A stretch of 64,000 nt of DNA from Nymphaea colorata (taxonomy: Eukaryota). Below the pieces are notes generated by a model. It searched no databases, was not told the origin of the DNA, and saw only the letters and a program-made list of their open reading frames with translations. Every line of letters starts with the position of its first letter. Position 1 is the first letter of the stretch. The DNA lies in NCBI RefSeq assembly GCF_008831285.2, contig NC_045138.2, forward strand, positions 12,090,001-12,154,000. The letters are read 5' to 3'. Of the stretch, positions 3,000-33,470 are shown one piece after another. A program made the position numbers and the translations under genes.

Positions 3000-3303
3000 A
3001 ATGTGTACCTTGTAGAGGAGACGTTGAGGTAGTGCTAGGATGAAAAACAACCACAAAAAAAAGAAGAAGCTTTTGATGTGCCAAAAACTGCTTCAATCTT
3101 CACCTCAAGGAAGCTTGATCCCGTCACAAATATCACCAAAAGAGGTCAGCAAACAAAACCCTCTTGTGTTTGTGTTAAATCACAGCCGACAATACATCGA
3201 ACACTTGGAGTGCTTCACAGCTCCAAAGAAAGAGTAATAGCTGAATCTTCAAGTCTTGAAAAAAAACAGCACGACAAAGAGCCACAACCTTGCTCTGATA
3301 CCA

Positions 3304-8490: not shown

Positions 8491-8721
8491 AGTTATGAGA
8501 GAAGTTGTCGTTGTTAGGGTCAGGTTACATTGATTCTATTTACCCAGTTAAAGGAGTTAAAGGTGTGGCGAGGGGAGGCACAATTGCTCCCAAGTTTTTT
8601 GAAATTGCTCCACACCCAAATGTGCACCTGTACACATACTTAAATGATGTGCTATTGGGTAGATGCATATCTTCTTTATTAATTCTAATGACTGTGACTC
8701 ATTTCATGCTCTTAAATGCAG

Positions 8722-8802
8722 CCATTGCTAAATATTTTCCACTCAGAACCAGGAAATAGCTTGTGGAAATGCAAAGTAGATGCTGCTATGCGTCAATGCA
8801 AG
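8722..8802 (+). CDS. Penultimate coding exon of a DusA-like tRNA-dihydrouridine synthase
   Basis: TGCAG|CCATTG...TGCAAG|GTATG, 81 nt, phase 0. Encodes PLLNIFHSEPGNSLWKCKVDAAMRQCK, which matches the recalled C-terminal region of plant DusA proteins. Confidence 0.8.
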
Positions 8803-9075
8803 GTATGCCATAAGAAGTAGTTCTTCTCTGGTCTTTGCTAGAACAGTTGCGTTTTTCTTTTGCCAGAGTATGCTGTATAGATGCACTTAAAATCTTTTCT
8901 ATGGTAGATTGCATAAGTTTCCATATTCCATTATCTGATTCCTCCATAAATTTGTCTATTGTGTTTCTTGCTCTTGATATCGAAAAGAATATCACATCTG
9001 TCTTTAAACTTTTAAAGTCATTCATGATACACATTATTCCATCGAAGTCATTCCCTCTTCTGTGAGGGGAAAGTT

Positions 9076-9151
9076 CAAAAGAAGGAAGTGATGGGAAACA
9101 TGTATGCACTCAACAAAAGAAGGAAGTGATGGGAAACATGTATGCACTCAA
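9076..9151. repeat. Perfect 38 bp tandem duplication in an intron
   Basis: CAAAAGAAGGAAGTGATGGGAAACATGTATGCACTCAA twice. Confidence 0.95.
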
Positions 9152-9410
9152 GGCAGATCATTTAGCCCATATTTCTTCAGCTTCAGTTTGTGCTCCTCTC
9201 TGGAGTCATTGGAGCAAGTAACAAGACTCTCCTTTAATTGCCTATTAGTTTTTTCTAATTGTCTAAATGGTGATAAGTTGATTTTATGGCATGAGCATCT
9301 TGGTCAGTGTAGTCCTTTTCTTCAAAGACAGGTCTGACAATTTGATTCCTATGTCAGGCTTGAGTTCAGAGTTTGATGAGAAGTGCTCGGTTTGTTGGAT
9401 ATGTAAGAGT

Positions 9411-9603
9411 TGTTGAACAAGGCTGAGGAAGAAAGAGTAAAATCAATCTTTCATTAACCCTAATCTCTGATTAAAAGAGATTAAGGGTTGACAGCCAGAA
9501 TTACAAAGAAGTCCATACAAAAATTAAAAAGAAAGAATATGACCTATGGAATTTCTTAAAATTCCACAGCGCTACCTAAGCTCAATAACATAACTTTCTA
9601 ACA
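9411..9603. mobile_element. Probable solo LTR (193 bp)
   Basis: TGTTGA...CTAACA termini; 5 bp flanks AGAGT / AGAAT. Confidence 0.6.
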
Positions 9604-9937
9604 AGAATCATGTCTTACCTTTTATTCCAATAAAAGCTTCATGACCCTTTGGAATTGTTTACTTCGATGTATGGAGACCTGTTCTCCAACGATCTCCATA
9701 TGGAAGCTAAGACTATGTTTATTTAATTGATAATTTTTCTTAATATACCTCGATATAAAAGCTCAAATATGAGGTGTTTGAACTTTTTTCACGTACTTTC
9801 ATCTGTCAACAATAGATTCTTTTACTCGTGCAGCATTTCCATAATGATGGTGGTGGTGAATGCTCTTCTAATGTCTGCTAAGAGACATGTTGTATTTGAT
9901 AATATTTGGATCTGGATCAAATGTTGATTCCAATCCC

Positions 9938-10145
9938 TGTTAGTTATAATATGTGTACATCTATTTTCTAAATTCCCTACCGTGTAAGGGTATTGTAAAA
10001 AGTTCTTATCAGGGTGTGACACCTTTTACTTAAAGGTCCATAATGTCTGCCTGATTGAGACGTATTGCTTTCAGCCTCTGCTCTCATCCTTTTCAACTAT
10101 TTCTTCTATGGATCTCTCTTGAGGTTTCTCACATGGTACCAGAGC
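9938..10145 (+). mobile_element. Short LTR plus PBS of a truncated retroelement
   Basis: TGTTAG...CTCACA followed directly by TGGTACCAGAGC (tRNA-Met PBS with one mismatch). Confidence 0.65.
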
Positions 10146-11837: not shown

Positions 11838-13435
11838 TGATGCATTCTATATTTTATGATGCATTGCTGTTAGCTCCTGCTAACACGCCGACAGAAGGTT
11901 ACTCAACTCTAACGAAGCCAGCTCTCAGGTTAGCTTAAAATGATTCTCATGAGCAAATAGGGTGAAACCCCTTGTTTTTAAGCACAAGTATTACAGGTAG
12001 GGCTTATTACGTCTCTGACTCAGCACCCGACCTGACTCATGACTTTAGGACTAGAAATAAAACCTATTGATATTAGGGACCCTGGTTCCTCTGCTAAGGT
12101 CCTCCTGTAACAACCTTTCCCCCTTCAAATCAAATTTTGTCCTCAAGGTGTGAAGTCAGGAAATCGAGCTTGAATGTCCATGTCCACTTTCCAAGTTGCT
12201 GGTAGGTCCTTACAACAGTTCCATTCAATAAGCCATTCAGTCTTCATGTGATTGCGTTGCTAAACTCTGCGGATGCCCAACTTGTGATATGGGTACACTC
12301 TTAAAACTTTTGCAGAACTGGTGCTCCTTTAATCTGAGCTGCAGATGGTGGGGTAGAACAAGGCTTCAACTTAGATACATGGAAAACTGGATGGATTAGA
12401 CTTCTTGCAGGCAAGTGCAGCTCCTAGGCTAAAGACCCAATCCTTCTCTTGATCTGATATGGTCCTACAAATCGAGGGGCCAGTTTGACCTCTCCTTTGG
12501 ATAGAGGAGGCCCTAATCCGTGGTGGGGTCGGCGGAGATAGACCCAGTCTCCCTCTTGGTATTGCTGATCATTCTCTTTCTATTGTATTGAACAACCATT
12601 TGGTTTTTAGCAGCAGCCGGGTGTTGCTTAAGATCCTTGAGTACTTCATCCCTGCAACGGAGTTGAATGTCAACGACCTCCTCATGGGTTGTTCCTGGCT
12701 GATAATGGCATATGTTTGCAGGGGGCCTCCCATAAACTGCCTTGAACGGGTGGTGCCGGTGGAAGAATGCCAGCTCATATTATATGCAAACTCAGCTCAT
12801 GACAGATAGTCTGCCCATAGCGAGTGAAGCAGCGAAGATAGGTCTCTAAGAGATCTTATTAACGATCCTTGTTTGTCCATGCCGATTGAGTATGCTGTTT
12901 TCATTTGCAGCTTGGTGTCTTATAGTCTAAAATATTCATTCCAAAAAGTATTCAAGAAAAGGGAGTCCTGTTCACTCACAATTGATCATGGCATTCCATT
13001 GAGCTTCTCTACTTGATCTTGAAATGCTTTGGCTACCATCTTTGCTGTAAAAGGATGGGCTAAAGGTATGAAGTGTGCATATTTTGAGAGGCAGTCCACT
13101 ACTTCAAAAATGACAGATTCCTGTGTGAAATTGGAAGTCCCTCTACAACATCCATGGAGATGTCCTTCTAGATTTGTTGTGGTATAGGTAAGGACTGCAA
13201 CGACCCTGCTGGTTTTCACGTCTCATCTTTATTTTGCTAACAGATAGCACACTGCTTGACGAACTCAAGGACTCCATGCTTCATTCATGGCCAGTTGAAG
13301 CTTGTCTTTAATCGTTGATAGGTTCCTCCCATGCCCTCGTGTCCTGCCCCCTCGGACCCATGGATGTCTGAAGGAGAATGTTCGAGCTCTGTTTCAGGTA
13401 GGACATAGATTCTGTGCTCGAAATACTACAGAGGT
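11838..13435 (-). mobile_element. 3' part of a degraded Ty3/gypsy chromovirus (Reina-like): integrase, chromodomain, PPT, short 3' LTR
   Basis: GHEGMGGTYQRLKTSFNWP, VVDCLSKYAHFIPLAHPFTA, LAPRFVGPY, HPVFHVSKLK and chromodomain WLIEW...ATW...FPDF. PPT at 12126->12114. LTR starts TGTTAC at 12112; its far end is approximate. Confidence 0.9.
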
Positions 13436-13503
13436 AGATCCGTGGGAATCGTTGGAGTCGGCGCTCTCGGCAGTCAACCGCAGTCCAGCTCTGATACCAC
13501 TTC

Positions 13504-15179
13504 TGTTAGAGTTGGACTGCGGTTGACTGCCGAGAGCACCGACTCCAATGATTCCCATGGATCACGCTCAGCAGAATGGGGGCGATTCATGTTGCAGCGA
13601 TCGTGAAGTGCTCGGGCGAAGCAGGGAGGACGATAGCGGTCTTGATGGAAGGATATCAACGTGGGTGTAGTGGAGGACCGACGATGGTATGACTGGGGTG
13701 ATCGTGGCAGAGAGGCGAGTCGAAAGTGATTGAGAACCATCGGAAGCTTACTGAAAAATCCAATGTAACAGTGTCACTGGTCCCGGAAGGCTTACCACAG
13801 GCAGACAAAGGTATGGATGCATCAAACGATGGCCAAATGGAGCGGAGATGCGTCGGGTGAGTGCGAGGATGATCAGAGTCCTTGGGCGACGCTGGGAGGA
13901 TCTCCTATTGCCAAAAAATGCAGAGGTTCTGCTCGTTGGGATCGGGCTTCAGACGAACAGAGCCACAACTGTTTCCATCATTCGGGCGATCAGTGCACAC
14001 AGAAAGGAAGGGAGAAATCGGAAATGGCGATTCGATCACGTCTGTCAGCACTTGATGGCGAGAAACTCAACTAGGAAATACATCTAGGGATTACAGTCTG
14101 CTACCAAAGGAGATCGAAAAGCCCGTCTCTCTGCGCAAAGACGAGCTGAAAAACCAACGGGAGACCGGCAGCCGAGCGTCTCCAGCGTGTGAGCTAACGG
14201 TCGGTCTAGTTCGCTGACTGAATTGGGACGTCAGACCGGTTTCAGAACACAAACCACCTGGGTTGGGAAACATACCTGGGTTCTTATTCCCGCAAGAGAA
14301 AAATGCACTATCTGAAACCCCCTGAAAACCCACGTCCAGATCCATGTAGCTACACGTGGATCCGGATCTACAAAGCCCGCGGTTCTCATAGACCCGTGTC
14401 CATCACCGCTGGGCGTGTCCCACCTCAAATCTCTCTAGCGCGTCCCGCGCATGTCTTTGAGGCCGAGTCTCTCCTTGCTTGGCGTGTCCGGCTCTGCCAC
14501 TGAACGTGTACTGCCCTGAATGCCATGGTCGTGTCTTCAGCGTGTCCCACTCAAGCATCCTCAGTATCCTGGAGTGTCCCGCATCACCTCCTTTTGTGTC
14601 CCGCTCTAGAATCTGAAACTCGAGTCCTCCCTCTGGATCTAGCGTGTCTCTGCTGGGAATCCTTTCCCTCCTAGCATGTCCCTCTCCACCGGAACTGCAT
14701 GTCCCACCTGGAGAGGAGCAGGTCGAGCCCTTTTGACCCGGTTCAGCTGTGCGTGCACATGAGAGTCGAGTGGGCTTGGCCAGGGTGACTGAAGCATCCA
14801 AGTTCCTCGACAGTGCTCGGTTGGGCCCCCTCAGCACATAACCTCCCTTGCTGAAATCAGCGGACGTGCAAAGCCTCACTAGATTGCTGCCCACGAAAGT
14901 CGCTCGCACGGTTAGCCTCACTTGCCTTCCACCTTGTTCCCTAGCATAGGCCGCTAGCCTCACTTGACTGTCGCCCATGTAGGCTGTGCGTAACATCTGT
15001 GTGGTTAACCTCCCTTGCGCGTGGAGAGGCCTTTCGGAGGTGAGCGACCAGTGATTTAGCCTCCCTAGTGCACGGGAGGGCGTCGGGAATGATGAGAAGG
15101 TGCGCTCCAAATGGTCCCAATCGACGTGGACATTGCAAGCTCTCGGCCATCCTGGCCGAGCAGGTGTCGGGTTGTATCA
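13504..15179 (-). repeat. LTR of element A (1676 bp)
   Basis: TG...CA termini with an adjacent PPT. Direct repeat of 21199-22081; distal half homologous to ~29430-30332. Confidence 0.85.
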
Positions 15180-15399
15180 AATCCACCTCCCTAAGATAGA
15201 GCATGCCCTCAGGCTCTGCGCAGTCTGGCTCGTCACTGAGGCCATGAGCGTTCTTCAAGTGAGGCTCTCTTCCACTGGATCCCATGAAAAGTGACCCAAC
15301 TCCTCAACCGTGCCCGGTGGTACCACCCCTAACTCGGTCTCAGCCCAACCATGCTGCCCCACTTCCTGCTGCTGATGGGTAGGTTCATTCAACCACGTC

Positions 15400-18300
15400 G
15401 AGGGTAGCTGATCTTGCAGCCGTTCTCTCGGGTGGAGTGGCCATCAGGCATGTTGTCTCATTTCTACTGTGGAAGATTTAGTTGCTGCAAACTTCTCCCT
15501 ATGATGCTTGGGGATGACTTTAGTAGCAAGCTACCCCTTTACAAGCGCTCCAAAAAAAAAGGGTCACTTATTGTGAGTCCCCCACGAAGTATCTTGGCAT
15601 CATCAAAGTCCCCAACTTCTTCACTATCGGCAGGCTCACACCAACCTGATATAGTCTGAAGAAGTGTGTTTAACAAGATCAGCATGAGGGTTAAGCTAGC
15701 ATGGGACAGGAAAAATACTGGATGGCCATTACTTCACTGGTGTCCTCTTCAGTCGGGTTGCTGTTGGGCCGAGCTCCTTTCTCAAATCTATTGGGGTTAG
15801 GCATTGTATTACAGCCAATCCATTGCCTATCAATCTCACCATCGCCCAGTTGAGCCTCAGCCTCTAGGTCTTCTTCGCCACTGCCCACTTCTTGAATGGC
15901 AGAAGCTCGGCCTTTAGAACCAGCCTCTTGTGGGCGAACCCCTTGTTTGTGACCAACATGGTTGTGTGCTACCTCTTGGTTGGGAAGGATACTCTTGTCA
16001 AGGACGGGCTGCATCCGGTTAGGCATCTCCCTCTGCCCTTGCCGGAGGATAATACTACCTCGTTTCTTATATTCAGTCCACCCGCGCCAGTCAAAATACA
16101 CTATAGCTGAAGGGTATCTCCCATCAATTCGGACTGCCCAAGGTGTTAACTCTGTTCTGCCCCTAGAATTTCCTTTGTTCGACCTACTGAAATAGGGTAG
16201 GGCGAGCTAAGAAATTTTTGCTCGAGGCAGCTTGCATGCTTCAACTAGTACAGGAGCAAGGGGGCTGTTGGATCCATCCATCCAGAAGCACCCAATGTCG
16301 TCCCCACTATCTGCAGTCTTAGTCCATCCTACCCTGGTTTCGAAGGAAGGGATCTTTTGCAAAAACACGGGGCTAAGCTAGGACAACACTGAGGAGAACA
16401 CGACAGCGCTTCAGGTCTTCTGTCCACCGATTCCAAGTGCTGGAACAAACATATTTCCTGTTGTGAGTCTATTGTATCCAGGTACAAGATCATCGTTCCT
16501 CCCTCGCTCACTGCCTTCGTTCTGTTTCCAGCATGCCATAACGTTCGACATGGCACTGCCTTTCTCCTCCTTCGTTTCCTCTATCGAAACGATCCTAACA
16601 CTGGTCAGCTTAGGTGCAGCCGTTTTATCCACAACTAGGAACACAACTGAGTTGCTGGTATCAGCTGCGTCAATCTGGCAGTATCCTCCTTGACTCGCAT
16701 TCTTTGGTGGAATCAAGGTGCAATCTGCTTGAGGCCTTCCTTCTGTTGGGGGCTCACTTGAGCTGGGGGACTCATTTCTTTCCTGGGTGGTGTTTCCAAG
16801 CAGGTCTACCGGGATATCGACCTCCCTCCGTCTGAGACTACTCCACAATTCTATCGTTGAAAATCTCAGGCACCCCATGACATCAATCCTAAAAGTTTGG
16901 ACTACCATGTGGACGCTTAGGCCAGACCGAGATGCAATAAATCCTTGGCAAAATATCATTCCGAGGTCTGGCTTCAACTTGAAAAATAAATCTCCTCGCA
17001 AAGTTCCTTTCTTCTCAAGGTTAGGAATTGGCTGACATTTATGCCAAGTTTTTGCTTCGCCTCACACCGAAGCACGAGCCTGTTTTGATGCGCTCCCATC
17101 TTTCGCGGGGATGACATCGATGTTTGCACAGGGTGCGATCAGTCACAGGTGCGACTGATGGTGGGTTGCCCTTACTAGTGGGAAGGGGGCTACCCGATGG
17201 ACCTGCTGCTGGATTTAATCCTCCACTGAGTGGCAGAGCAGCATCATCGTCTGCTAAGGCTTCTCCCGCATGATATACTACACCCACAAGCAGCCGATCG
17301 TTGGCAGCTACCCCTGAATTTTGTCTCGGCTGTTCGGCATCCTGAGGAAGTAGGTGCTCTAACCTATCCTTAGTTTCAGGTTGCCCTCCTTCCCTTTCGG
17401 CTTGAGCCTCTCTAGCAGACTTTACAGCTGTGATTTCCACTCCAGATGCACATACACGATGGACTGTCCCTTTTTTAAATCATCAGGGTGTTCGTCGCTC
17501 AAGTTCTACTCAACTTCAGTTTGATAGCCTCCAAAATGCCTCGCCACCTATTACCGCCCCTGCTGCGCATAATCAAGAGTGGATTGAGACCTTCATGCTC
17601 GCTCTCAGGACCTATCCAACGCAAGATGGAGCCTTTCGACTAGTGCGTTAGGGTCTGGTAAGGGGTCCTTTAGGGGCGATGCTATTCGCTGTCTGCTTTG
17701 GTGATTGATCTCAGACCAATGGTCACTTTCTTCATTCCCTTGAGCGTGACGTTCAGACCATGGTGCATGGTCTGATTCCACTCGTGGATCTGAAACCGTG
17801 GGAGCCCATTCTGGCTGGCATCTCTTTTGGCTGTTGGCTCCACTTTTGCCTCCTTCACATTCTCATGAATATTGTTGGGTCTGAACATACCCAGATTGGG
17901 GTGGGCGATGACTGCAAGCTGGCCTAGTTTCATAGCCCCTTGTCTCAGGCCTATCACTTGGTTCTAGAGGGGTTCTTGATGGGAAACGAGCCTTCTGGTT
18001 AGTACCACGAGAAAGGCCTCTCCCTTGGTTGGAACCAGCCGACACCCATTTTAGCTCATAATCTGCTGCTATTCTCCCTATTCTCAGAATGTCCCCTTCC
18101 TAACTCGCATGTAGCTATAAGGTGTCACCCTCTGACCTGAGAGCATGGTACCATGTTCAGACTCTAGGTCCCTTACACAAAATGCCTTGGTTGATTCATC
18201 AAACCACATTTGGAGATGGTCCAAACTGATGCCTGAATGTTCTATAGTAACATCACAGTCTGGCCGTCGTCCCACAATTAATTCGAAGGCCTGGTCATGA

Positions 18301-18798
18301 TTTGTGTTTGGTACCCAAGGTCTGCGAAGGATAAAATCTGATAGGTGAACCCCATTCCGGTAGGTGGTGAGAATAGGAATTGCCCTGCCTTGCATTCAAG
18401 TTCGGCCAAGCTCAAATATGATTGAGATGTAACTATGAGATGGCTCGCTCTTAGGGCTCTTTCTCTCATGCAACGCACCTCCATAGCCATATAAGCTCGG
18501 AGAAGGCGTCTTTTGTTCGTCATGTACTGTCTCTCCCTGTTGATCTGATTGCTCGAAATCAGTCCACTACCAATGCACTTCCTCTTGCTCTGCTTGGTAA
18601 CAGCCACTTCCTTGGGCACAGTATGCTTGATTGTCCTCTCACACATCATAGAATCTATCATCTATTGCATGATTTTGAGTAAGGTAGCCTGCATAATAGT
18701 GAGACTCAGCCCTGCTTGCTTTGCGGAATAGTGAGACTCAGCCGAGCTGTAACTGTAGAAAAAGCCCTCATCGAGTCTTTGTCTTTCCATTCAGCCAT
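15400..18798 (-). pseudogene. Decayed long ORF of element A (starts MAEWKD; FHA domain ~18395-18044)
   Basis: Fragments linked across stops and frameshifts: MAEWKDKD, MIDSMMCERT, FHA VGRRPDCD...ISLDH...VRDLESEHGT...GDILRIG...YELKW, and QTFRIDVMGCLRF. The 3' limit is approximate. Confidence 0.75.
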
Positions 18799-20482
18799 GC
18801 ATAAAGCTGGAAACTACTAGATCTGAAGACACATTGTTGACCTCTTGATACTTGGCTGAAACCAATCACTGCAGTGCCTAACTGCTGGTAAATCCTTACC
18901 TCTCTTGGTGGTCATTACAATGATTCCTTAGCCGGACAATGGATCTACACCCAAACAGATGATACAATCGGTCCCCAAATCCCAAACCTCACAACAACAA
19001 CTCTCAAGGGCTGAGTATAAGGCTTTAATTGTTACAAAGGCGCAATGATACATTTTTGCAAATCGCTCTCAACTCACTCATCAATCAAGCATACATGCTT
19101 AGGAACGCAGCAAACCATGCCCCAAATCCCACGGGTTGGTCTTCCCGCTGCTGGGTTGTGTCTTTCGCAATGTGCACAAGAAAGAGCCCAAAACAGGGGT
19201 GCCGGTGGTGGGTTTGGTACAAAAATGACACTCTTTCCCTCGCAGCTACAGGATGACAGAGTATGATACTGGTCGGGCTCCGACGAAAGAACAACAATGA
19301 TAATGAAGGGGTAGGAAGCCTCCAAAGGTTCTCGCCATGAATCTGCTAAGTGGCAGGTCTGCCCCTTGCAACAAATTACAAAAAGTTCAAATGTTGCAGA
19401 AATGGTGGAGGATAAGGGGAAAATGTTTTAGAGCCACTTCACCGGATCGTAGTGGAGCCCCTGGTTCAAAGATGAGTAGGGGGAAACTATCGTTGGATGG
19501 GCGCTAGCAAACGCCTCTTCCTGTTAGCTGTTACTCTGCTGTAGTTGTTTCAACAGCTCCAAGGTCTCCCAAACAGTATACCTCCTACTGTAGGTGTAAT
19601 ACAGGACAACACAAATCAAGCTCCAATTAAACCAGATGGAAATAGAGCAAGAAGGTCATGGTCATTTCACTGGATATACGAGTGAACCGCATGAGAATCA
19701 AAAACGGGGTGAGGCAGTCGTCGGTTACGCTGGCAAACACATATTCTCCTTTGATAGCTCCGGTGCAGCATTGGCTTCATTACAACAACCTCTCACTATA
19801 GTTTCCAGCTTTCAGACATCAACAATTAAGATCTAAACGAAACAGCAAGAGACAAGCTTAAAGAGTCATGGAGAAGTCACCGGAAGTTTGAGTAAACCCC
19901 AGGAGATGATATAACGGGGTGAAGCAGTCACCGGAAGCACCGACAAATGCGTATTCTCCCACTGGAACTTCGGTGCTTAAGTGTGATTCTTTGTCGACAG
20001 CTTTAGGGACCCTTGTCTCTGGAAAACTCTGCTGCTCCCTATTGGTGAGTCCAAAAATCTTGATATTTGGATAAAAAATAGAAGACGTCTAGAGGAATCC
20101 AGCGCCACCAAGCTCACTGTCTATTTGATCTCCTAGCATAAACGCACCTAGGTTGAAGTCACGCCTCAGCCTGGGTGCTCTGTCGAGTCTCAGCTCAAAC
20201 CTAGTCGCAGGGAACTCCTCAGAACAGATGGTACTCAAAAAAATTGTAGTGCCTTGGTGTGAGCTCTAAAAATTCTCCAATTTGGTGAGGAGGTAGCCAA
20301 GATGAAGACAATTCTGATGGACCTTTGCTCGACCCAAATGGCAGCCGGAGTAATCAACGCCGACATCCTAAAGTCAAGGCAGATTCTGGTCTTTCCATCG
20401 ACTCAGAAGGCTAAGATCGGGTGGAGTCAGATCTGGACACGTGCTTCCAAAGTCGAGGAGACGCTGACACACCCTCGCAAGC

Positions 20483-20654
20483 TTTGACAAGTAGCCGACA
20501 AGAGTGGAGCGAGACAAGTCTGCGGTCGTCGACTCGGTGAGACGAGACTCGCTTCCGGATTCACCGAATTTGACAAGTAGCCGACAAGAGTGGAGCGAGA
20601 CAAGTCTGTGGTCGTCGACTTGGTGAGACGAGACTCGCTTCCGGATTCACCGAA
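20483..20654. repeat. 86 bp tandem duplication in the leader of element A
   Basis: TTTGACAAGTAGCCG...GGATTCACCGAA twice, near identical. Confidence 0.95.
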
Positions 20655-22081
20655 TAAGCCAGACACTACTGCGTTAGACACAGAGAGATGTGCGAGCCTG
20701 GACGTGTCTTGCCTTGGCGTAGACATGAAATAGCAGATTCATCGATGAACAAAGAACTCGAAGGAATGTTCCGCATTCTTCGCGATCGCCTGACAATTCC
20801 TTCCGCAGCCGAAAATTGATGGAAAACTTTGTCGATCTTCTATAGGCTTCGTGCATTCTTGGATGGAATTTGACGATCCATAGCTCGTTGGATACAGAAA
20901 TTTGTTAAGAGTCTTCTCGTATGATCATCTACATGCTTTGGATCTACGGTCAGCCGGAATCGGTGCCAAAATCTCTCAATCTCCACTGAAAATGGGAAAA
21001 TAGAAAATAGAAATCAATGGCAATGAATTGGGATTTCGGCATCGATTCCGGCCGACCGTAGATCCAAAGCTGTTGATTTGCTTGGTAATTTCTCCAGTGA
21101 AGGCTCAGATTCAGCTGAATTTCTCTACTAGGTACCGCCACTTCTTAGTCTTCAATCTCTTGATCACCGTGGGCTAAGCGATGCTCTCATACCGCTTCAG
21201 TTAGAGCCAGACTACGGTTGACTATCGAGCGCAACGACACCAACGATTCCCACAGATCACGCTCAACAGAATGGGGGCGATTCATGTTGCAGCGACTGCG
21301 GAGTGCTTGGGCGAAGCAGGGAGGACGATAGTGGTTTGGATGGAAGGATATCAACGTGGGTGCAGCGGAGGACCGACGATGGTATGATTGAGGTGATCGT
21401 GCCAGAGAGGTGGGTCAAAGGCGATCGAGAACTGTCGGAAGCTCACCGAAAAATCCAATGCAATAGTGTTACTTGTTCCGAAAGGCTTACCGCAAGCAGA
21501 TAGAGGTATGGATGCCTCAGACGATGGCCAAATGCAGCAGAGATGCGTCAGATGATTGCAAGGACAATTGGAGTCCTTGGGTGCCGACAAGATCTCTTGC
21601 TGCCTGAAAATGTAGAGGTTTTGCTCGCTGGGATTGAACTTCAAACGAACAGACCCATGACTATTTTGGTCATTCGGGCGATCAGTGCACATAGAAAGGA
21701 AAGGGAGAAACCGAAAATGGCGATTCGATCACATCGGCACTTGATGGCCGGAAACTCAAATGGAAAATACATCCAGGGATTACAGTCTGCTACCAGAGGA
21801 GATCAAAAAGTCTCTCTGCACAGAGACGAGCTGAAAAACCAGTGGGAGGGAGGTGGGCTCAACCGGTCTTGCACGTGCGAGACCGACTCAACCGAGCGTC
21901 TCCCGCATGTGACCTAACGTTTAGTCTGGTTCGCCAATTGAATCAGGACGTCAGATCGGTTTCATAACACAAACCACCCGGGTCGGGAAACATACCCGGG
22001 TTCTTATTCCCGCAAGAGAAAAACGAGTTCGTGCCCTATCTGGAAACCCCATGAAAAACTCTCGTCCAGATCCATGTAGCT

Positions 22082-23175
22082 CGGGTATGACGGCGAATAC
22101 TGATTTTGTGCTGCAAACACTCAGGTATCGCTGGAAAGAGGGAAAACAGGACTTGCGATTAGCAATCGATCTAATCCAGCGCAAAAATCCCAAAATGAGG
22201 GGGCAGAAGGACTCATCGTTCATGGATCAACCTTATGGGATTTATCAACCGGTTAAAAACAACGGAGGAGGCCCCAAATCGATTGGAGATCGTTCGAAAA
22301 AAAAGTCTGCAATGGCTTTTGCCTGAAAACAACGACGCTTCTAAAATCAATTTCTCACCAACGGTGACTCCAAAAATTCTCCAAATTTGTACAGAGGATC
22401 CTAAGACATAGACGAATCCAACGACCCACTGCTTAACAGATGAATCCACCCAAACAAATGGCGTAGGGGCTTTGAGTCACCGATTCTGTATATTATGTTG
22501 TCTGCACTTGGCGAAGCCGTTCTAATACCGTCTGCAACTTGATGAATCACCACTGGTGAGCGTATACTCTGACACCAACTGATGCGACCACACTGCCGAG
22601 AAGCGGCCCTAGCATCGTCACTACCCTAGGATCACGCTCAACAGTGGCGGATTGGACTCAGTTTCGTGGTCTGCTACTGGTTCTCCCTCTATCGTAGGAA
22701 CATGGAGAAGAGATGCGATCATCAGAGGCCAAAATGGAAATGGAATGGGCTTGTGAGCATGGAGGGATGATAGCGAAGATTATGGCGACAACAGTGGAGT
22801 GGTTTGTCGCCAGAATACGCTGGAGATGAGGGCGGAAGGCAATGAAACTGTGATCAGATGGATGAACGCTTGAGTCTGCCGTGACATAGGAACAGGCGAG
22901 ATTGTCAAGTCCAGGCGGGTGTATCACCGCCAGTTAACTCTCCGGTCTGTGGTAAGAGCTTACCCAAAGAGTCGTGCAGTGATCGGAGGACTAAGGTCGC
23001 CGAAGATGCACCACGTCGCCGAAAAACGATGCCCTATATGCCATCAAAGAACCAGTCGTCGCACAACATGTTGTCTGCTCCTATCGTCAGATTTTAGGAA
23101 TTTTTGCTAGGAATAAAAGAGAATACCATCGTGGCAATTTTGATCAAACTTGCTGATAAATTGGGTACTGGAAAA
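22082..23175 (-). mobile_element. Partial extra copy of element B (U5 part of LTR, PBS, leader)
   Basis: Direct repeat of ~28120-29160. PBS TGGTGTCAGAGT at 22577->22566; LTR edge at 22580. Confidence 0.8.
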
Positions 23176-23179
23176 ATGA

Positions 23180-25827
23180 GCTGGTAACCCTTTATGGTGG
23201 ATTGTAGCCAGCCTTCCTCACTACCGACTGATTCATACCACCCTGTCGTGGATTCATAGAGCTCGTCCACTTGTAAATGTGTGGGATATACGCTGTCATA
23301 GGTTAGGATAAGGTACTGCAGGTGCACTTGGTCACTGGTGTCCTCCGTGTTCAAATCAAGAATCTCTCGTAGGTGAGTACCCAGCTCCTGCACACCTTCC
23401 TCCTTGTCATTAGCCATGGCTTGCCATTCTAGGCCCATATAAAACTATTTGTAAGTGGCCAGGCTCCCAACTCGTGCCTGTGGGTATGTTCCATGCAGGA
23501 GAGAATAGGCTTGGATAGTTCTTGACCACAGGTATGTTCCATGCAGGAGAGAATAGGCTTGGATAGTTCTTGACCAGGGTGGTTGGGTGAAAGCCATCAG
23601 TTCGTTATTTGGGGCATCTTCAAGCAGTCTCACTTGGAAATCAACCTTCACCTGGCTTGACACCCGATAAATCTTAGGCATCCCATGACGTCAATCCTAA
23701 AAGTTTGGGTGACTATGTAGGCATTGGAGCCAGACCGAAGCATGATCGAGAACTGTGGAAGCATTGATTCGAAATTTGGTTTCAGCATAACAAGCGAGTC
23801 CCCGTAGAGAGTTTCACCCTGGGCGGTGGTTGTGCACTGATCAAGTGCCAACAATGTCTGCTTTCTCAAGTCTCTGCCCGGCACTATCACAACTATGTCT
23901 TCCTCCTCAAGACAAGGAGACTACCCACACTTGTGTCCAACCTCCCACTTTCCTTTGCATATGTAAAACATCGGCCTATCGTGAAGCATTCTCGTCTCTG
24001 ATTTCGAGGGAGACACTGAGTTAAAGGCAGCGGTAGGGAGGTGTAGCTGTCCGATTGCATGCTGCCCTCCCAAGCCCATGGGGAGTTGTCACCTTTGTCA
24101 GGACTGCCCGATCCATGTAGCTGGGAATTGTCTTGGTTTGCAGCTTCTTTAATACACGACCCTAAACTAGTAGGAGTGACTTTAGGAGGTTCAATCCGCC
24201 CATTTGGAATGGGCTTGTCATCCTTCCTTAGGGGTACATCCGTGTTGTTCTCCTCCAGTTTGGCCTGCTCATCTTCAACATGATATCCTTCAAAATGCCT
24301 CATAACCCGTGGTCGCTCTTGTTGGGAAAATCAAGAGAAGATTGGGATGTAAGTGCTCCCTCTTGAAATCTGTCCAGCAAAAGACGAACCCTTTCGAACA
24401 GTGTGTCTGGGGCTGGCAGGGGGTCCTTCATGGCCTATGCTAATGACTATTTGCTTTGGTTATTGACCTCGGGTGAGTGGCCCCTTTCCTTGTTATCATG
24501 TGCTCGATAATCAGACCATGTTATGCAGTCTGATTTTTTTCTTAAACTTGAAGCCCTGGACTCCCATTTCGGTTGGTAGTTCCTCAAACGGTCAACACCT
24601 CTTTTGCCCTCATCATTCTCTCGCGAATAATGTTGGGTCTGATCATAGTCAGTTTGAAGCAAGCTGTAGCTACGTAATGACCTGGTTTCATCGCCCCTTG
24701 ACTCGGTTTTAACAGGTCAATCTAGTGAGGTTCTTGTTGGACGATGAGTTCCCTGGTAAAGGCTGCGTGATAACTCATTTCCTCGTCTTCCCTGATTTTG
24801 GGAAGTGGATGCTATGCTAACCGCGGAACCTCTCCTTTGGCAAGAATCCTCTAGTGCCCATTTCAGCTCGTAGCCTCTCTTTAGTCCCCCTATTTTTAGA
24901 ACGTCTCCTTCTGTAAATTGTAGGTACCGATCTGGTACCATTCTTTGGTCCGAGAGAATGGTGTTGTGGTCGGGAGATAGGTCCCTCACCCAAAACTTCT
25001 TGGCACCTTCGTTAATCCAAATCCAAAACTGCCTCAAACTGACGTGAGGGTGATCGATAATGACATCACAGTCTCGATGTCGCCCCACAAGTAATCTGAA
25101 TGGTTGGCTGCGATAAACGTGAGGCGCCGGGGGTCTTCTAAGGACAGGCTCTGATCGAAGAGCCCCATTCCAAGATCCAGTGAGAACAGGAACCATCCTG
25201 CCTTGTTGCCAGTTTTGGCCATACTCAAATCTTAGTGGGCCATAACTAAAAGATGCTCCTTTTCCCTGGTCTCTTCTCTCGTATCCACTCGCCACACCCA
25301 TCGATTCAACTGCTCGTAATCGGTCCACTGCTCATCATCGTCCTCTTGCCCACTATTGTTATCTTGCTCGACTTGGTAGGAGTCATATTTTCTAGCATAG
25401 TTTGCTCGGCTGTCCTCTCATGTATCGTAGAATCTGTCATCTAGTGCATCCTCTCGAGTAGGATAGCCTGTTGAGTATTGTGATTCCGCCTGCTTAGCCC
25501 ATCGCCTAGCTCGTCTTGACATTCATATTCATGATCAAAACTTTCATTGTCCCCTTCGGTATCATATACCCTATCATCCAACGCATGACCCTTCGAAGGA
25601 TAGCTATGTATGTCCGAGGTCTCAGTCGGGTAAGTCTAAGCATCTCCCTCATACAAATAGTTTGACCCGTTAGGCTACTCGTATAGGGGTTGATCTACAT
25701 AGCTGCTCTCCTGTTCCCCATAATAGTCTCCATAACAGCCTTCTTCCTCCTCATAATAGTCTTTCCCAATGAAGCTGTAGCCGTAAGATGACCTGCCACT
25801 GAAGTATCTGTCTTTCCATTCAGCCAT
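23180..25827 (-). pseudogene. Decayed long ORF of element B (starts MAEWKD; FHA domain 25196-24858)
   Basis: MAEWKDRY; ORF 24717-25328 with LVGRHRDCD...HPHVSL...VRDLSPDHNT...EGDVLKIGG..RGYELKW; QTFRIDVMGCLRF at ~23700. Confidence 0.78.
23483..23576. repeat. 48 bp-period tandem duplication in the element B ORF region
   Basis: GGTATGTTCC...TTCTTGACCA twice; gives WSRTIQAYSLLHGTY twice on the minus strand. Confidence 0.95.
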
Positions 25828-28800
25828 GCTTGGTGCTTCACACGCCAAACTCACAAATTCCACCGAGTTGCTTTTGCTAATAGCTGCTGAGATCCCACTG
25901 CTCCTAAGAACACCTTCAGCCTATCTCACAAGGGTGGCCAGTACAAATGTATCCGACCTGAACAAAGGCCCTAACTGTTCCCGCAAAGGAAGAATGGAGT
26001 CCGTCCCCAAATCCTCAACCTCACAACAACTCTCAAAGGGCTAAGTTCAAAGCTTTAATCGTTACAATGGCATGACGATACAATTTGCAAATCGCTCCAA
26101 GCTCACTCATCAAGCAAGCATACATAACTAGGAGACGAACAAACCATGCCCCAAGCATCCCACTGGTAGGTCTTCCCACTGCTGGGCTGCGTCCTATGCA
26201 ATGTGCACAAGAAGGAGCCCAAAACAGGGGTGTCGGTGGTGGGTTAGAACAGAAAATTACACCTTTTCCCTCGCAGCTATAGGGTGTTTCCAATTGGACT
26301 TGTGGACGGAGGATGAAACCGCGCAAGCTGCTCCTCTCTATTCAACAACCTCTTCACGCCAACAATCAGCTATAAGTTCGCAACTAACGCCTTACACCAC
26401 AGCTCCTTGCTAGAGGCAAACACAATAGTAAATGCCTTAAAATGATAGCAAGGTTCAGAACAGGAGAAGGGTAATTCGCATCACCCGATGGTAATTTGAC
26501 CCCAAATATGTGATGTGTTGGGGGAAGCTGTCACTAGAGTGGCGCTGGCAGTCGCCCTTCCTTCTCCCGGTAGCAACTCAACTCACGGTTGCTATAGCTA
26601 CCTCCTTCTCACCGACAGTAGCAGCTAACTCCAAGAACAATAGAAAATTACTGTTCGGAAAAACAATGGAAACAGAGTATTTCCATCGGAGTGTTAGAAT
26701 TCGTCACCGTGAATAAGTTTGATCCCTATTGTTAATATGCTAGGAGGAGGCAATCGCCGTTTCAGCGCAGCGAATGCTTAGAATTCTAACACGGTTCAGC
26801 AGGCTCCTACACGTGCTTTGCTTCAACTCAGCTCCCTGTCACAGCAAACTCGGAACAAAGAGTAGGGAGTTACTATGACGAAGAAATCGATTACAGTGAA
26901 CTCTCAAAGTTCTGGGATGTCACTAGATGCCAAGGATCACCCCAAGCTGTATGTGAATGGGGGAGGCAGACGCCGTTAAGCGCCGGTGTATGTGCTAGGG
27001 AATTCCCTGCTACGTTTCTGGTTCTTCCCGTTCCCAAGATGTCCGCAGTCACTCAGAGATGAACAGAAACAACAATAGCATAACCAGTCAAATTCTCAAT
27101 AGGAAAATGCACAACTAGAGCAGAGAATTAGAGGTGTGTCACTGAATAGTCAAGTAAACCCCATGAGATGTTGTAATGGGGTGTGGCAATCATCGGAAGC
27201 ACCGGCGAACGTGTATTCTCGTGTTGCAGATCCGGTGCAGTGAGGGTGATATTGAATCAACAGCAAGAGGGACCTTTGTCTCTTGAAAATTCTGTAACTC
27301 CTCACTGCTTTTCCAAAAATCTTGAAATTGGACCAAAAATAGAAGACTCCCAACCGAATCCAATGCCACCAAGCTCATTTTTAGATGCGACCCATAGTAA
27401 AATCTCGCCTAGGTTGAAGTCACACCTCAGCCTGGTCCTTCTATCGATTTTCTGCTTCAGCACAGTTGCAGGGAGCTCTTTAGACCAGCTTGTACTCAAA
27501 AATTCCTAGCACCCTGGTATCAACTCCAAAAACTCCGAAACTTGGTGGGAAGAAAGCCAAGAAGAAGACTATTCTAATGGATCTTTGCTCGACCAAAATG
27601 ATGGCCGGAGTTATTAGTGTCGGCAATCTGAAGTTGACGTAGAATCTGGTTTTTCGCCGATTGAGAAGGGGGAAATTGGGGAGAGTTAGGCCTGGACACA
27701 TGCTTCTCAAGTTGGGGACACACCGACACGTCCTCACAAGCATTGAGAGGAGGCCGACACGTGTGGAGTGGGACTCGTCAGTAGCCGTTGACTCGGTGAG
27801 ATGGGATTCGCTGCGGGATTCGACAAGCGTGGATGACATGGTTGCATTATGTGCGTCGGGACTTATGAATCCTGGTGACATGCTGATGCTTCAGACACTG
27901 TTACACAAGACTTGACTGCGACTGAAGAACACAATGCTGAGATTTTCGATTTCACCAAAATTTTTGCTTCCGCTGTCGAAAAATGCATAAAAGTGCTAGT
28001 GACCTTTGGAAGATGATCCCGACCTCGTTTCTAAGCCAAATCAAGCGTTCTACCCCTTGATTTACTTGGAATTTCGTCCTTTAGCTTCCAGGCTAGATTG
28101 CAACACGATTTGGCATTGATTCGACACTGATTTTGCACCAAAAATGCTCAGGTATCGCCAAAAAGAGGAAAAACAACACTTCTGATTAGCAATCGATCCA
28201 ATCCAGCACGAAAATCCCAAATATGAGGGGGCAGAAGCACTCACCGTCCGTGGATCAATCTTATGGGATTGATCAACCGATGAAAAACAGTGGAGGAGGC
28301 CCCAAATCAATCAGAGATCGTCTGGAAAAGAAGAGTCTGCACTGGCTTCTGCCTGAAAATAGCGACGCTTCTAAAATCGATTTTTCATCATCAGTGGCTC
28401 CAAAAATTCTCAAAATTTGTACAGACTACAGAGGATCCTAGGACACAGACGATTCTAACGGCCCACTGCTTGACAGATGAATCCACCCAAACAAATAGCA
28501 CCGGGGCTCTGAGTCACCGGTTCCGTCTATTCTGTTGTCTGCACTTGGTGAAACTATTCTAATATCGTTTGCAACTTGATGAATCACCACCAGTGAGCGC
28601 CTGCTCTGATACACAAGGATCATGCTCAGCAGGTGCGGATTGGACTCAGTTTTGTGGTCTACTGTTGGTTCTCCTTCTAGCATAGAAACAGGGGGAACAT
28701 ATGCGATGATCAGAGGCCAAAATGGGGATGGAATGCGCTTGTGAGCACGGAGAGATGATAGCAGAGATGATGGCGATGGCGGTGGAGTGGTTTATCGTCG

Positions 28801-30332
28801 GAATACGCTGGAGATGAAAACAGGAGGCAATGGAACAGTGATTGGATGGATGAACGCTTGAGTCTGCCACGACACAGGAACATGTGAGAATGTCGAGTCC
28901 AGGCGGGTGTATCACCACCGGTAAACTACCCGATCTACGGTAAGAGCTTACCTAAAGAGTCGTGTAGTGATCGGAGGACTAAGGTTGCCAGAAACGCACC
29001 ACGTCGCCGAAAAATGAAGCCCTATATGCCGTCAAAGAATCAGTTGTCGCACAACACGATGTATGCTCTTATCGTCGGATTTCAGAAATTTCTGCTAGGA
29101 AGAAAAGAGAATACCATTGTGGCAATTTTGATTAAACTTGTCGGCAAATTGGGTGTCGGAAACCCTTGTGGGAAACATCAGAATCGATTTGTACAAGCTA
29201 GATCAAAAGGCCAAGAGAGAGTCGAGTTCCCTACCTTTAACGCGCATGCAAGGAGAAGCACTAGAGACTTGGTTCGATACGATTGTCGAACTAGGTCGAT
29301 GCCCAAAAACCCGCCCGAGTACTTGAATGAGCTCGGTTCAGCGATTGACTCAACAAAACAATCCGCAACCCAATCCGAGTTCTTTTACCGTTCAGATCGA
29401 GGTTACAAACTAGTGGGTCCAACCCACCTGTACAATCCGGACACGTGTCCGGTACCCCAAAGCCACACCGTGTCCCACTATAGTGTCGCTGCTTGCTTGG
29501 TGTGTCCCGCTTTACTGAGGCGCGTGTCCCACCTCGGTTCTCCATCGCGTACCCCACGTGTCCTGTATTTCCTAACTCGCGTGCCCCGCCGCCCCTTGTA
29601 CTCATCTGTGGCCTCCCAACGAGTCCCGCTTCACCTGAAGCCGTGTCCTGCTCCTTGCCTTGCATCCAGCCCTTCACACGACACCTAGAACGTGTCTTTC
29701 TCTCTCTAGCGTGTCCCGTGCTGCATAGAGGTATCGCAACACACTCCAAAGCCTGTTTGGGTCTTCCTGTGGCTGCATGCAAATGCTGAACAGCCCTTAG
29801 CGTCCTCGACGGGGCTGGAGTTAGCCTCCCTAAGCGGAACATGGCACCCCTCAACAGATGCCCTAACTGTGGCCTCTCCCTATGGCTTCTCCCAAAACCC
29901 CTCGAGTAACCTCCCTTGCATGCGAGTGGCTCTCCCGAAATAGGAGGAAGACGCCCTCTACCTTGGCTTAGTGCTAGATAACCTCTCTTAACCGAGTTGA
30001 GGCTGATGTCGCCTATCGCCTGTCCTGCTACCGAGATGCCCTGGCTGTGTCTGCCCAAAACCGCTGCATGCCCTCGAAGGATCCAACGTGTTATCCTCAC
30101 TGGATGTCTGTCCTGGTTCATCGCATAGGCTGCTAGCCTCACTTGACTGTCGTGCTTATGGCTGGTGTATAACTCCTGCATGGATAGCCTCCCTTGCGTG
30201 GGAAGAGGCCTTCGAGAGTGAGCAGGTGGTGTTTTAGCCTCCCTAACACGCGGAAGGGCCTGGGAGATGTGGAGAAGGTGCCAACCATCTGGCCTCAAGC
30301 GGCATGGGCCGAGCGGAGGTAGGTCCATATCA

Positions 30333-33300
30333 GAGATCAGTCCATCTACATCCATAGCACTTGATGGGATTGTTCAACAGCTGCTCCCTATCTTCTTCAC
30401 TGATTCGTTTGTTTGGTGGGCCTACTTAATCAGATCTCATAATGTCACCTAAACTTGCGAAGGTGCTAGCAAACAATCAGTGGATTGTCCTTGCATGGAG
30501 AGTCCATCAGCTGCTAGGTTCTCCCACCCTTTTCTATTTGTCACAGAAAACGGGTCTTATTCGAAAAAGACGTGTATAATATGCCAAAACACAGTCAACC
30601 ATATAAAACGTGAAAAAAACATGTTTTTTTTAAAAAATGCCAAAAAACAAAAAAATGTGAAAAAAACACGTATTATGAGCATATTATATGCATTTTTTGT
30701 GTTTTTTCATATTTTTACGATTTTTATTTTTTATTTATTAAATGTTTTAAATTTTTAAAAAAATTGCAGATCACAAGATATTCTTGAGATATACAACTTT
30801 GTCTGTATTATACCAGAAAAATTTCTCACGCAAAATACCCGTACACGTATCACAAAATCAAAACTCATTAGCTTGCATATGCATCGCTGTAGTTGTAGGC
30901 TGTGATGATCAGTTATTACCATAAACTTACGCCCCATGAGATAATGCTTCCATTTCATAATTGCTAAGACTATTGCCATGAGTTTACGTTCACATGCAAA
31001 TTTGGTTTTAAAAGTAGGTCCCAATGCCCTACTAAAAAATACAATTGGGTGTTGGTTATGTTGTAGCCCAACACCTACTCCATGATCAGACGCATCAACC
31101 TCTACAATGAATGGAATATTGAAGTTAGGCAACTTCAACACTGGTGCTGAGGTTATTGCTTGTTTAAGCATATCAATGGCATGTTGTTCATCTGGTCCCC
31201 ATTTAAAGTTCTTATTCTTTGTGAGGGCTGTTAACAAGGCAGCAAATACGCCATGTCCCTGTACAATTTTTTTGTAGTAGCCTGCTAAACTGAGAAAAGA
31301 TCTTAGGTCATTAAGAGAACTAGGTGGCTTCCAATGCCTCACTGTTTCTATTTTCTCTTCTTCCATCTTCATTGTCCCCTTGCTGATGACATGCCCTAAG
31401 AATGCGACTTGAACTGTACTGAACACACACTCGGACAGTCGAGGCTTAAGATGATGTTGCTGCAAGACCAGAAACACTTGGCATAGGTGCTTAAAATGGT
31501 CTTTCTTTGCTGCACTAACCACTATTTTGACGTCAAAGAATACTAATACGAATTTGTGGAAGAAGGGCTTGAAGACATCATTGACTGGAATATGGCTGGA
31601 GCATTTGTTAACCCAGACGACATTACCTTAAATTTGTAATGCTTGTCATGGGTGTGAAACGCAGTCTTGGACATATCTTGAACCCCCACCTTGTTTTGAA
31701 TCTTTTGATGATATCCTGTGCATAGTTCAAGCTTGGAAACATACTCCGCCCCATGTAGTTGATAATTAAATCTTCAATGACAGGTATGGGATACGCCATC
31801 CTCCATCTTTCTTCTTGACAATCAATGATGGGGAAGCAAAGGGAGCTTCGTCTTGGCTACATTGTCCACTCTGGTGGCATTTCATGAACAAGATTCTCCA
31901 GTATTTCTCTTTGACGCTGACTGTATCAGTAGGGGCATCGATTGTCTGCCTCGCTTCTTGGTTGGAGTTCTATCCAGTGATCATAATCATGGGAAGGAGA
32001 AGCCCCTCGGGCGCTTCGAACACACGCTTAAATTCTGCCAATATACCTGTCAATTTTGGCTGGCATATCTCACTTAGTGGCACTGCTTCTGCCAGCAGCA
32101 GCATAAGAGGGGCTGATGTGCCCTTCAATATCTGAGTTGCTGATTGTTCTGCACTATCCATTGGAGTCGCTACCACTAAGGTCTGTCTCTCTTCACCCGT
32201 CTGCAGAAATGCATATTCATACCTATGAAATCCCAAATGACCTTCCCAAGGCCGTGCAGCCACTATATGACAAAGACTAGATCAGCTCCTGCCATGGCCA
32301 AAGTAAACAGCTCAATGGGAAATCGATGGCCTCGGATTTTCAACACTTCCTTGGCGCATCTTCCTCAACACTTCAAGGTGCTGCCATCTCCCACTGCAAC
32401 GTCAAATGCCTGCTGGTTTTTACGCGACAGCCTAAGGCTTTCGCTGGTTTCTCACAAATGAAATGAAATTATGGATGGAGCCCGTGTTCATCAGCACACT
32501 GAAAGGTCGTCCTCTCAGCTGCCCTTCAACTCTCATCAATTGCGGGACCTCATCCCCTACCAAGGTGTGTAAGGAGATTTCCACAGATCCATCTCCCATG
32601 GATTCCACCCCTGCCTCTTCTGCGTTTCCAGCTGTTCGTCTGGTGGCTCTTCCTCCTCATCCACGACATACATGTGAAGCCTTCTCCACGTATGCCATGG
32701 TGTCCACGGCTGGTTGCAGTGAAAACAAATGCCTTTCCTTCGCTTTTCTTTAATTTGCTCAGGTGTGAGACATTTGAAAACAAGTCTGTTTGTCGAATTC
32801 CCATGCAGAGCTGCTACCACGCGCACTGGTGCCGCAAAGGCCTCAAGGCGCGTCGACTGTCCACGGATATTTCTTTCAAAGCTCCCCTGCTTTCTAGCCA
32901 GATGGAGCCGGTGATGCTTTTCCTCTGCCATTCTAGCAAGCTTGAAGCAATTAGAGAGATTGCGAGGCTTTGCCGCCTGGACTTCTATGCGAAGATCATC
33001 CTTAAGTCCTCCTAAGAAGGCTCCAACTGGGACCTCCACTGGCCACCCACTCACCATGTTGTTAACCTCTTCAAAATTTTCCTGATACTCCACCACCAAG
33101 CCCTTCTGTGTGATTTTAGACAGCTCGATGTTATAGTCGACATATGTTAAAAGGACGAAATCTCGCTTTCATGGCCTCCAGCAGCTCTGTCCAGTTGGGT
33201 TTTCGCTGCTGAGCTAACAACATACCAGCGGATAGCTGGTTCCTCCATATGCATCGCTGCTTGACTCACTCTGTGATCGTCGGCTATACCCTGGCACTCA

Positions 33301-33470
33301 AAGAATTGCTTGGCTTTAAATATCCAATTCAGCAAGTCATCCCCGCAGAATTGAGGAAACTCCATTTTGGCTGGCTTCCAGCCTGACATGCCTCCATCGC
33401 TTCCTCTCGACGATGGAATGACGCCCCTCCTGGTGGAAAAACTTCTTTTGTCCACTAATATCTGATTTAT
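30333..33470 (-). mobile_element. 5' part of the same chromovirus: gag, protease, RT, RNase H (degraded, 5' LTR missing)
   Basis: Gag KMEFPQFCGDD...WIFKAKQFF and FLGGLKDDLR; CFHCNQPWTPWH; protease INTGSIHNFI; RT FLGHVIS; RNase H VEVDASDHGVG and TDHHSL; RKGWENLAADGLS at ~30530-30495. Confidence 0.92.
30546..30848. mobile_element. AT-rich MITE-like insertion in the gypsy RNase H/connection region
   Basis: Interrupts FDFVI|RKGWENLAADGLS; short inverted ACGGG/CCCGT near the ends. Confidence 0.6.

Follow-up and report, generated by a model that had tools for sequence, protein, structure and literature searches.

The window analysed here is a stretch of 64,000 nucleotides from the water lily Nymphaea colorata (contig NC_045138.2, positions 12,090,001 to 12,154,000, forward strand), and all coordinates below refer to it. 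On its minus strand lies a 16.9-kb block with two broken retroelements bearing long terminal repeats (LTRs), element 1 and element 2, whose long interrupted open reading frames (ORFs) each include an FHA domain that appears to derive from the meiotic spindle regulator PS1 of Nymphaea. Two sense-strand FHA domains had been placed here by a first-pass annotation made from the letters alone, and both peptides exceed the Pfam cut-off for PF00498 (20.7 bits): copy 1 reaches 51.6 bits (E 1.3e-13; 18084-18395, minus) and copy 2 reaches 45.9 bits (E 7.6e-12; 24717-25331, minus). As delimited by Pfam and alignment, the putatively PS1-derived domain of copy 1 extends over 18046..18380 (minus) with a 1-nt frameshift near 18100; that of copy 2, delimited by Pfam, phmmer and a structure model, covers 24858..25193 (minus) in an open frame. 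Apart from the frameshift the two domains align without gaps, with 52 of 112 residues identical (the earlier hand count, after repair of one frameshift, was about 46 of 105), and their DNA is 64% identical. A chance similarity to FHA domains is rejected. For copy 2 the FHA fold is predicted to be kept: the modelled structure is a beta-sandwich with a mean pLDDT of 87.6, and its best structural matches in Foldseek are FHA domains (E 5e-8). An internal duplication of the C-terminal half of the domain was suspected and tested, with no significance (p 0.14 and 0.30).

The FHA domain does not form a small ORF of its own, as had been assumed. Judged from the sequence, it is part of a long ORF and not a lone cargo. 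In both elements this ORF starts with the same run of codons, MAEWKD (at 18798 and 25827), after a leader of 2.4-2.8 kb, and continues in the same order with an acidic Tyr-rich stretch, the FHA domain, a linker, a short KDPLP motif, a broken Cys/His knuckle and the sequence QTFRIDVMG. The broken ORF of element 1 occupies 15691..18798 (minus), with KDPLP at 17670, QTFRIDVMG at 16899 and an unassigned tail whose 3' end is uncertain. In element 2 the parts follow in the same order over 23175..25827 (minus), and the 3' end has been removed by a deletion into the adjacent LTR. Over the stretch from 18713 to 17500, gaps of 18, 54 and 52 nt and three of 1 nt separate the copies; those of 18 and 54 nt are in frame, which is a point for one single ORF. 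Both copies are decayed, as noted earlier: the long ORFs are broken and no intact one was seen.

The broken knuckles are located at 17035..17080 (minus, spread over three frames) in copy 1 and at 23927..23976 (minus, one frameshift) in copy 2. They were recognised by what we take to be the Gag zinc-knuckle motif and by comparison with the window's own gag. A permissive form of this pattern has only two matches in the six frames of the window, one in element 2 (23959) and one in the gag of a neighbouring older gypsy element (32718). At its knuckle the long ORF looks Gag-derived. The internal regions had been described as lacking gag and pol motifs. This holds for Pfam, where the six sense frames of both regions match FHA-type families only, with no capsid, other gag, pol or PIN, but not for the decayed Gag-type zinc knuckle downstream in the same ORF of both copies. 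Capsid, protease, reverse transcriptase (RT), RNase H and integrase were not found in either internal region, and neither is an autonomous Ty3/gypsy element. A tblastx comparison of the internal regions with the neighbouring older gypsy gave no match, and a scan of viral contigs for relatives of gag was empty. Word-seeded protein searches, which cover longer proteins only, returned nothing for the FHA domain, the post-knuckle ORF or the linker alignment, and the post-knuckle ORF had no informative match in the ESM Atlas (best 0.76).

Read 5' to 3' on the minus strand, the block consists of LTR-B, a primer-binding site (PBS), the internal region of element 2, a cut LTR-B, a PBS with about 470 bp of B leader, and a cut LTR-A, followed by a PBS, the internal region of element 1, a polypurine tract (PPT), LTR-A, a further PBS and a short piece of the LTR end in inverted orientation. 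LTR-B, the 5' LTR of element 2 (28615..30332), is 64% identical to LTR-A over 836 columns, and the PBS of this element lies at 28603..28614. The cut LTR-B 3' of element 2 (22580..23174) is 84.3% identical to 28615-29162, with a Kimura two-parameter distance (K2P) of 0.182. It is joined by a second, truncated B-type unit (22099..22577), which comprises a PBS (22566-22577) and the leader and is 85% identical to 28126-28603. In element 1 comparison of the LTRs identifies a truncated 5' LTR-A (21199..22081), followed by a PBS with two mismatches (21183..21194), a PPT recognised from its sequence (15180..15192) and the 3' LTR-A (13504..15179), which is 85.5% identical to 21199-22081 (K2P 0.167). 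Beyond it stand a perfect PBS (13488..13499) and an inverted LTR-A end (13436..13487, an 81-87% palindrome) that closes the block as a fold-back; all features other than this palindrome are on the minus strand. The four PBS (28603, 22566, 21183, 13488) carry a motif of the tRNA-iMet type. Both internal regions lie downstream of such a PBS and an LTR, so that their earlier description as bounded by LTR and PBS stands to this extent; a PPT and a complete 3' LTR occur in element 1 alone. Element 1 thus retains an LTR pair, PBS and PPT with its 5' LTR truncated, and element 2 retains LTR and PBS but has lost its 3' end, the PPT and most of the 3' LTR.

A probable 5-bp target site duplication (13431..13435 on the left, 30333..30337 on the right, 4 of 5 bases matching) bounds the whole block and not each single element. 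The block splits an older Ty3/gypsy element between RNase H and integrase. Its gag, protease, RT and RNase H part is found at 30338..33400 (minus; RT_RNaseH matches and translations), its integrase part at 12100..13430 (minus; Integrase_H2C2, a weak rve and SH3_Tf2-1), and the older pol continues across the block. Within subfamilies the repeats differ by K2P 0.167, 0.182 and 0.171, compared with about 0.5 between LTR-A and LTR-B. Since the LTRs are 64% alike between the elements and about 85% within each pair, their sequences place elements 1 and 2 in different subfamilies. The substitution rate of grasses is 1.3e-8 per site per year; at this rate a K2P of 0.17 corresponds to 6-7 million years, which is only a scale, as the rate may not be that of the water lily. 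Both the A and the B "3-prime" LTRs have a PBS directly after them, and at 13423-13577 the block ends with LTR, PBS and the inverted last 50-65 bases of the LTR, an arrangement resembling an aberrant cDNA end with fold-back.

Upstream of the ORF a non-coding block is conserved between the two subfamilies (18968..19255 in element 1 and 26000..26286 in element 2, minus strand; 83.5% identical). It is better kept than the FHA DNA and has a higher contig depth. This block may be a promoter or a packaging signal; its folding shows no excess over shuffled sequences (z 0.97 and -0.73), and an Rfam scan of the window gave no match. Recent short tandem duplications within the elements were observed at 20483-20655 (86 bp at 98% identity) and 23480-23575 (about 40 bp).

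A phmmer search with the copy 2 FHA domain over 1.84 billion representatives yielded 290 matches at E <=0.001. The best of these, P0001 (E 8e-26, 40% identity; next 3e-13), is a Nymphaea thermarum protein that clusters with the N. colorata "FHA domain-containing protein PS1". FHA and PIN occur together in 19 of the 26 top matches scanned, and among the 150 matches listed 68 have an FHA domain and a PIN region, 13 have a PS1-like FHA only and 69 are other FHAs. Rare residues of Nymphaea PS1 recur in a window copy at 14 of 32 positions, against 6 for the best other host protein. The elements and Nymphaea PS1 are grouped with an SH-aLRT of 85 in a quick 95-row tree and of 99, 99 and 92 in trees of 32-34 rows, where the attachment is near the tip of the Nymphaea branch. 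These smaller trees are quick ones (LG+G4, 30 of 79 host rows, no outgroups) and long branches can mislead, those of the elements measuring 1.7-3.8 changes per site versus less than 0.1 for host PS1. A derivation of the element FHAs from PS1, with Nymphaea PS1 as the nearest, is supported by these comparisons, and the origin proposed from the letters alone, PS1 and not another plant FHA, agrees with both search and trees. Because the elements attach near the tip of the Nymphaea branch, the capture would most likely have come late on the water-lily lineage. The PS1 gene itself is not present, since only residues 7 to about 151-172 of PS1 match the window and Pfam finds no PIN domain, as had been noted; the FHA is a derived domain only. 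A PS1 pseudogene is ruled out by the missing PIN, the missing intron and the LTR frame.

The missing intron also points to the route of capture. Scanning metagenome contigs returned 22 loci for PS1, three of them transcript-like and 19 genomic, the latter from a handful of species. All 19 genomic loci have a phase-1 intron donor inside the FHA domain, in the Val codon before HGT; the acceptor was found in 17, and two contigs end before it. A phase-0 donor follows 70-80 residues beyond the first intron site in all six loci checked. The element FHAs cross the first site without a gap, and weak similarity to PS1 may extend beyond the second. Since the conserved PS1 intron is absent from the element FHAs, the domain was likely captured from a spliced PS1 mRNA, provided that Nymphaea PS1 shares the intron. 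Template switching between co-packaged RNAs is a capture route described in PMC13317346. Among the PS1 transcript contigs, L001 (300-302) skips about 265 nt from the FHA intron site in comparison with L003 (302-567), probably as an exon-2-skipping form.

Two N. thermarum proteins, P0083 (KAF3792591) and P0094 (KAF3772812), contain far-diverged FHA domains (25.5 and 25.8 bits for PF00498), for which the nearest host protein is Nymphaea PS1. The N-terminus of P0094 aligns Met to Met with the start of the element 2 ORF (E 2e-7), a further point for one single ORF. In an 80-column core, any two of the four FHAs have 21-39 residues in common, and each shares 29-38 with PS1; none of these alignments contains a gap. 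By these alignments the FHAs of P0083 and P0094 appear to be relatives of the element FHAs, and one or two captures both fit the trees. A search of the ESM Atlas with P0094 returned generic FHA clusters only.

Further copies of the family were found in DNA contigs of four runs surveyed at 80% likeness, of which run X1 may derive from the window's own source; an example is a 1308-nt contig over 24894-25556 with 107 differences. An old multi-copy lineage is supported by these data. The diverged subfamilies, the diverged relatives and the additional contig copies bear out the proposal that a retroelement lineage took up the FHA domain long ago. The summed contig depth is highest in a leader block (19884-20340 and 27196-27652), which would therefore be common to more family members than the FHA domain. 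At 23410-23470, close to where the element 2 ORF is cut off, several different contigs match, and since this holds for the smallest run too, a relative present in more copies is suggested for this stretch. A relative of the KDPLP stretch (17574-17664), with the same loose end, occurs in one DNA contig and six RNA reads.

In the RNA survey, 84 reads were obtained from three of four runs, with 6-26% of each run read. None of the 84 is at least 95% alike to the window copies, which are therefore themselves unseen in RNA. At 24909, 37 reads of RNA run X10 and 7 of X6 come from a related copy matching 24837-24982, the C-terminal half of the FHA domain only, and this copy is weakly transcribed in two of three testable runs. 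Its differences number 5, 9 and 10 at codon positions 1, 2 and 3 (hand count, at least 24 differences) and give no sign of constraint. Host PS1 is rejected as their origin: the reads have a likeness of at least 80% to the DNA of element 2, where PS1 shares less than half of the residues, and no shift towards PS1 is visible at the few sites compared by hand.

For the phosphothreonine pocket the positions G-R, S-x-x-H and N/H-G were scored; these are conserved among PS-like proteins (PMC3071787). In copy 1 the G, R, S, H and HGT are present and only the Arg after Ser is gone. Copy 2 lacks this Arg, the His and the Gly, and in P0083 and P0094 the Ser is gone. Across the four family FHAs G and R are thus kept in all, the Arg after Ser in none and the Ser in two, and the His is missing in one. 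At the level of residues, the pocket is partly or wholly lost in these domains, which argues against a lasting reading of phosphothreonine.

We consider it somewhat more probable than all rival readings together (probability about 0.55) that elements 1 and 2 are broken members of two subfamilies within a likely non-autonomous, chromovirus-related Ty3/gypsy LTR lineage that was moved by a helper, and whose single ORF encoded a Gag-derived accessory protein in which the Nymphaea-PS1-like FHA, likely taken from spliced mRNA, was probably a long-kept working part. In PMC6317226 a tRNA-Met PBS is ascribed to most chromoviruses and to copia elements and not to non-chromoviruses. A PS1 mRNA would have been co-packaged, and a template switch of the reverse transcriptase would have taken its first two exons, perhaps with the start of exon 3, in frame. 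Capsid and enzymes would come from a helper chromovirus. The zinc knuckle would bind the element RNA and the FHA domain would show a surface for protein contacts, PS1-like at first and later kept mainly as a fold. Both window copies would have died after insertion.

The case for continued use of the domain comes mainly from the two window copies; the gapless core of the four family FHAs and the modelled fold add to it. Nine stop codons are found in 374 codon pairs. Neutrality of the ORF since the A/B split predicts 17.9 (P 0.017), and neutrality only since insertion predicts 7.5. The FHA part has no stop in 126 codon pairs versus 5.8 expected (P 0.007). On 54 columns where Nymphaea equals the family consensus, the replacements are closer to the PS1 profile than simulated drift would make them, both in copy 1 (p 0.03) and in copy 2 (p 0.006). 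The ratio of nonsynonymous to synonymous substitution rates (dN/dS) over all blocks is 0.68 (confidence interval (CI) 0.53-0.89, kappa 3; one 39-codon post-knuckle block is out of frame), and two shifted frames give 1.03 and 1.08. A fair reading is that frame and fold were under relaxed but real constraint, with moderate confidence in protein-level selection on the ORF. The selection claimed by the first-pass annotation is therefore upheld only in part: stops are depleted and replacements are compatible with the profile in the window copies, and the pooled dN/dS is below 1, but it is not clearly below the controls, one non-coding frame reaching 0.70.

Several results weigh against a working FHA domain in a Gag-derived protein. 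For the FHA domain the CI of the dN/dS (0.68) extends from 0.43 to 1.04 (kappa 3), and the non-coding control frames give 0.70, 0.88 and 1.03. The profile test is non-significant for P0083 (p 0.28) and P0094 (p 0.11), and a test of the hydrophobic core is significant in none of the four family FHAs. Identity between the copies is not higher at PS1-conserved columns (22 of 43) than at variable ones (30 of 68; p 0.30). The stop count is biased, because open FHAs are those that are noticed or annotated. A Pfam gag match is absent, the knuckle depends on the motif named above and one comparison within the window, and no intact ORF was found. Finally, the intron-bearing loci come from few species, and the PS1 gene of Nymphaea is not among them.

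Much of this would also be seen if the PS1 piece were a passenger, carried in frame while the frame stayed open for other parts of the ORF or for RNA stability, and the FHA domain had no task of its own. The FHA dN/dS equals that of the remaining ORF (0.69, with the 39-codon out-of-frame block included) and a control frame comes as close as 0.70; the lack of an identity excess at conserved columns, the decay of the pocket and the length of the element branches compared with host PS1 fit equally. Such a passenger would not be expected to show profile-compatible replacements in both window copies, a gapless 80-column core in four far-diverged members and an FHA part free of stops. We regard it as a possible but distinctly less probable explanation than an FHA domain that remained in use.

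An effector or decoy role in meiosis, in which the protein competes with PS1 for phosphorylated partners in meiocytes, with germ-line targeting or a bias towards unreduced pollen as the result, is unlikely. The donor itself would fit, as loss of PS1 gives dyads and diploid pollen according to PMC2581889, and so would the nearly complete pocket of copy 1 and the related copy transcribed in two of three testable RNA runs. Against this role, the Arg after Ser is missing from every one of the four members, two lack the Ser, and copy 2 lacks the His and Gly; the RNA match is limited to the C-terminal half of the FHA domain; and no intact ORF was seen. For the effector or decoy proposed initially there is thus no positive evidence. 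Similarly doubtful is a more far-reaching variant, in which the PS1 FHA replaced the capsid and the FHA-knuckle protein couples element RNA to PS1 partners in meiocytes; this would target the element to the germ line and, as a side effect, influence unreduced pollen and thereby polyploidy. Camouflage at the RNA level, with the PS1 piece kept because silencing it would silence PS1 as well (an idea described for maize elements in PMC13317346), is very improbable: with FHA DNA 64% identical between copies and a protein identity to PS1 below one half, the sequences are too far apart for small-RNA cross-talk, and what is kept is frame and fold.

Among known systems, the lineage with an FHA domain in its Gag-derived protein is comparable to maize Bs1, an LTR element with pieces of host genes fused in a new chimeric ORF (PMC13317346 and PMC7264820). 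Bs1 contains pieces of three enzyme or transporter genes, whereas the present elements hold a single complete folded binding domain from a meiotic regulator, which among four members has diverged to 21-39 identical residues out of 80. The Ulp1-carrying Vandal MULEs (KIU) likewise kept a captured host domain for long in an accessory protein of the transposon (PMC13317346), but they are DNA transposons with a strongly conserved protease, in contrast to an LTR element with a fast-drifting FHA. The extra ORFs of Ogre, Retand and Athila (plant mobile domain, Transposase_28, Athila ORF-1) represent lineage-typical additional coding in plant Ty3/gypsy elements; according to PMC6317226 these are non-chromoviruses with other PBS types and mostly obscure donors, while the present elements have a tRNA-Met PBS, an identified donor and the FHA within a Gag-derived ORF instead of a separate one. 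PS1 and PS-like proteins (FHA and PIN) share the N-terminal FHA of the same family, with Nymphaea PS1 nearest; the elements differ by the absence of PIN and of the intron in the FHA, by the altered phosphothreonine pocket and by their position inside an LTR element.

The assumption that such a family has not been described before agrees with our literature searches, which found no FHA-bearing LTR family within the texts covered, subscription journals being outside this coverage. In the REXdb survey "FHA" is absent from the main text and five supplement text files (17,418 characters), although full tables of extra ORFs may lie elsewhere. Host fragments that plant LTR elements take up are mostly short-lived passengers, and for the majority of long-lived extra ORFs the donor is not known. 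In the present case a donor, a meiotic spindle regulator, is identified, the route is visible in the lost conserved intron, and the domain persists in frame with a Gag-type knuckle despite deep divergence. The host domain probably remained in use within a transposon protein, a rare and traceable example of a host protein-interaction module taken over by a transposon. The FHAs also form a natural series of variants, from a near-complete pocket to none, which offers a way to ask what the PS1 FHA binds. If the meiotic reading were true, a transposon would be linked to unreduced gametes.

Elsewhere in the window, an AT-rich insertion of about 280 bp in the older gypsy pol (30550-30830) is possibly a MITE. 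Copia-type pieces occur at 2181-4765, with gag at 2181-3092 (minus) and RT/RNase H at 3986-4765 (plus), and more Met-type PBS sites are found in this region and at 8151-10145 (3292, 8151 and 10134). From their motifs, the segments at 49995-50982 (plus) are presumably exons of a NAC-domain transcription factor gene. A 125-bp unit is repeated in tandem about four times at 52697-53207, with about 70% identity.

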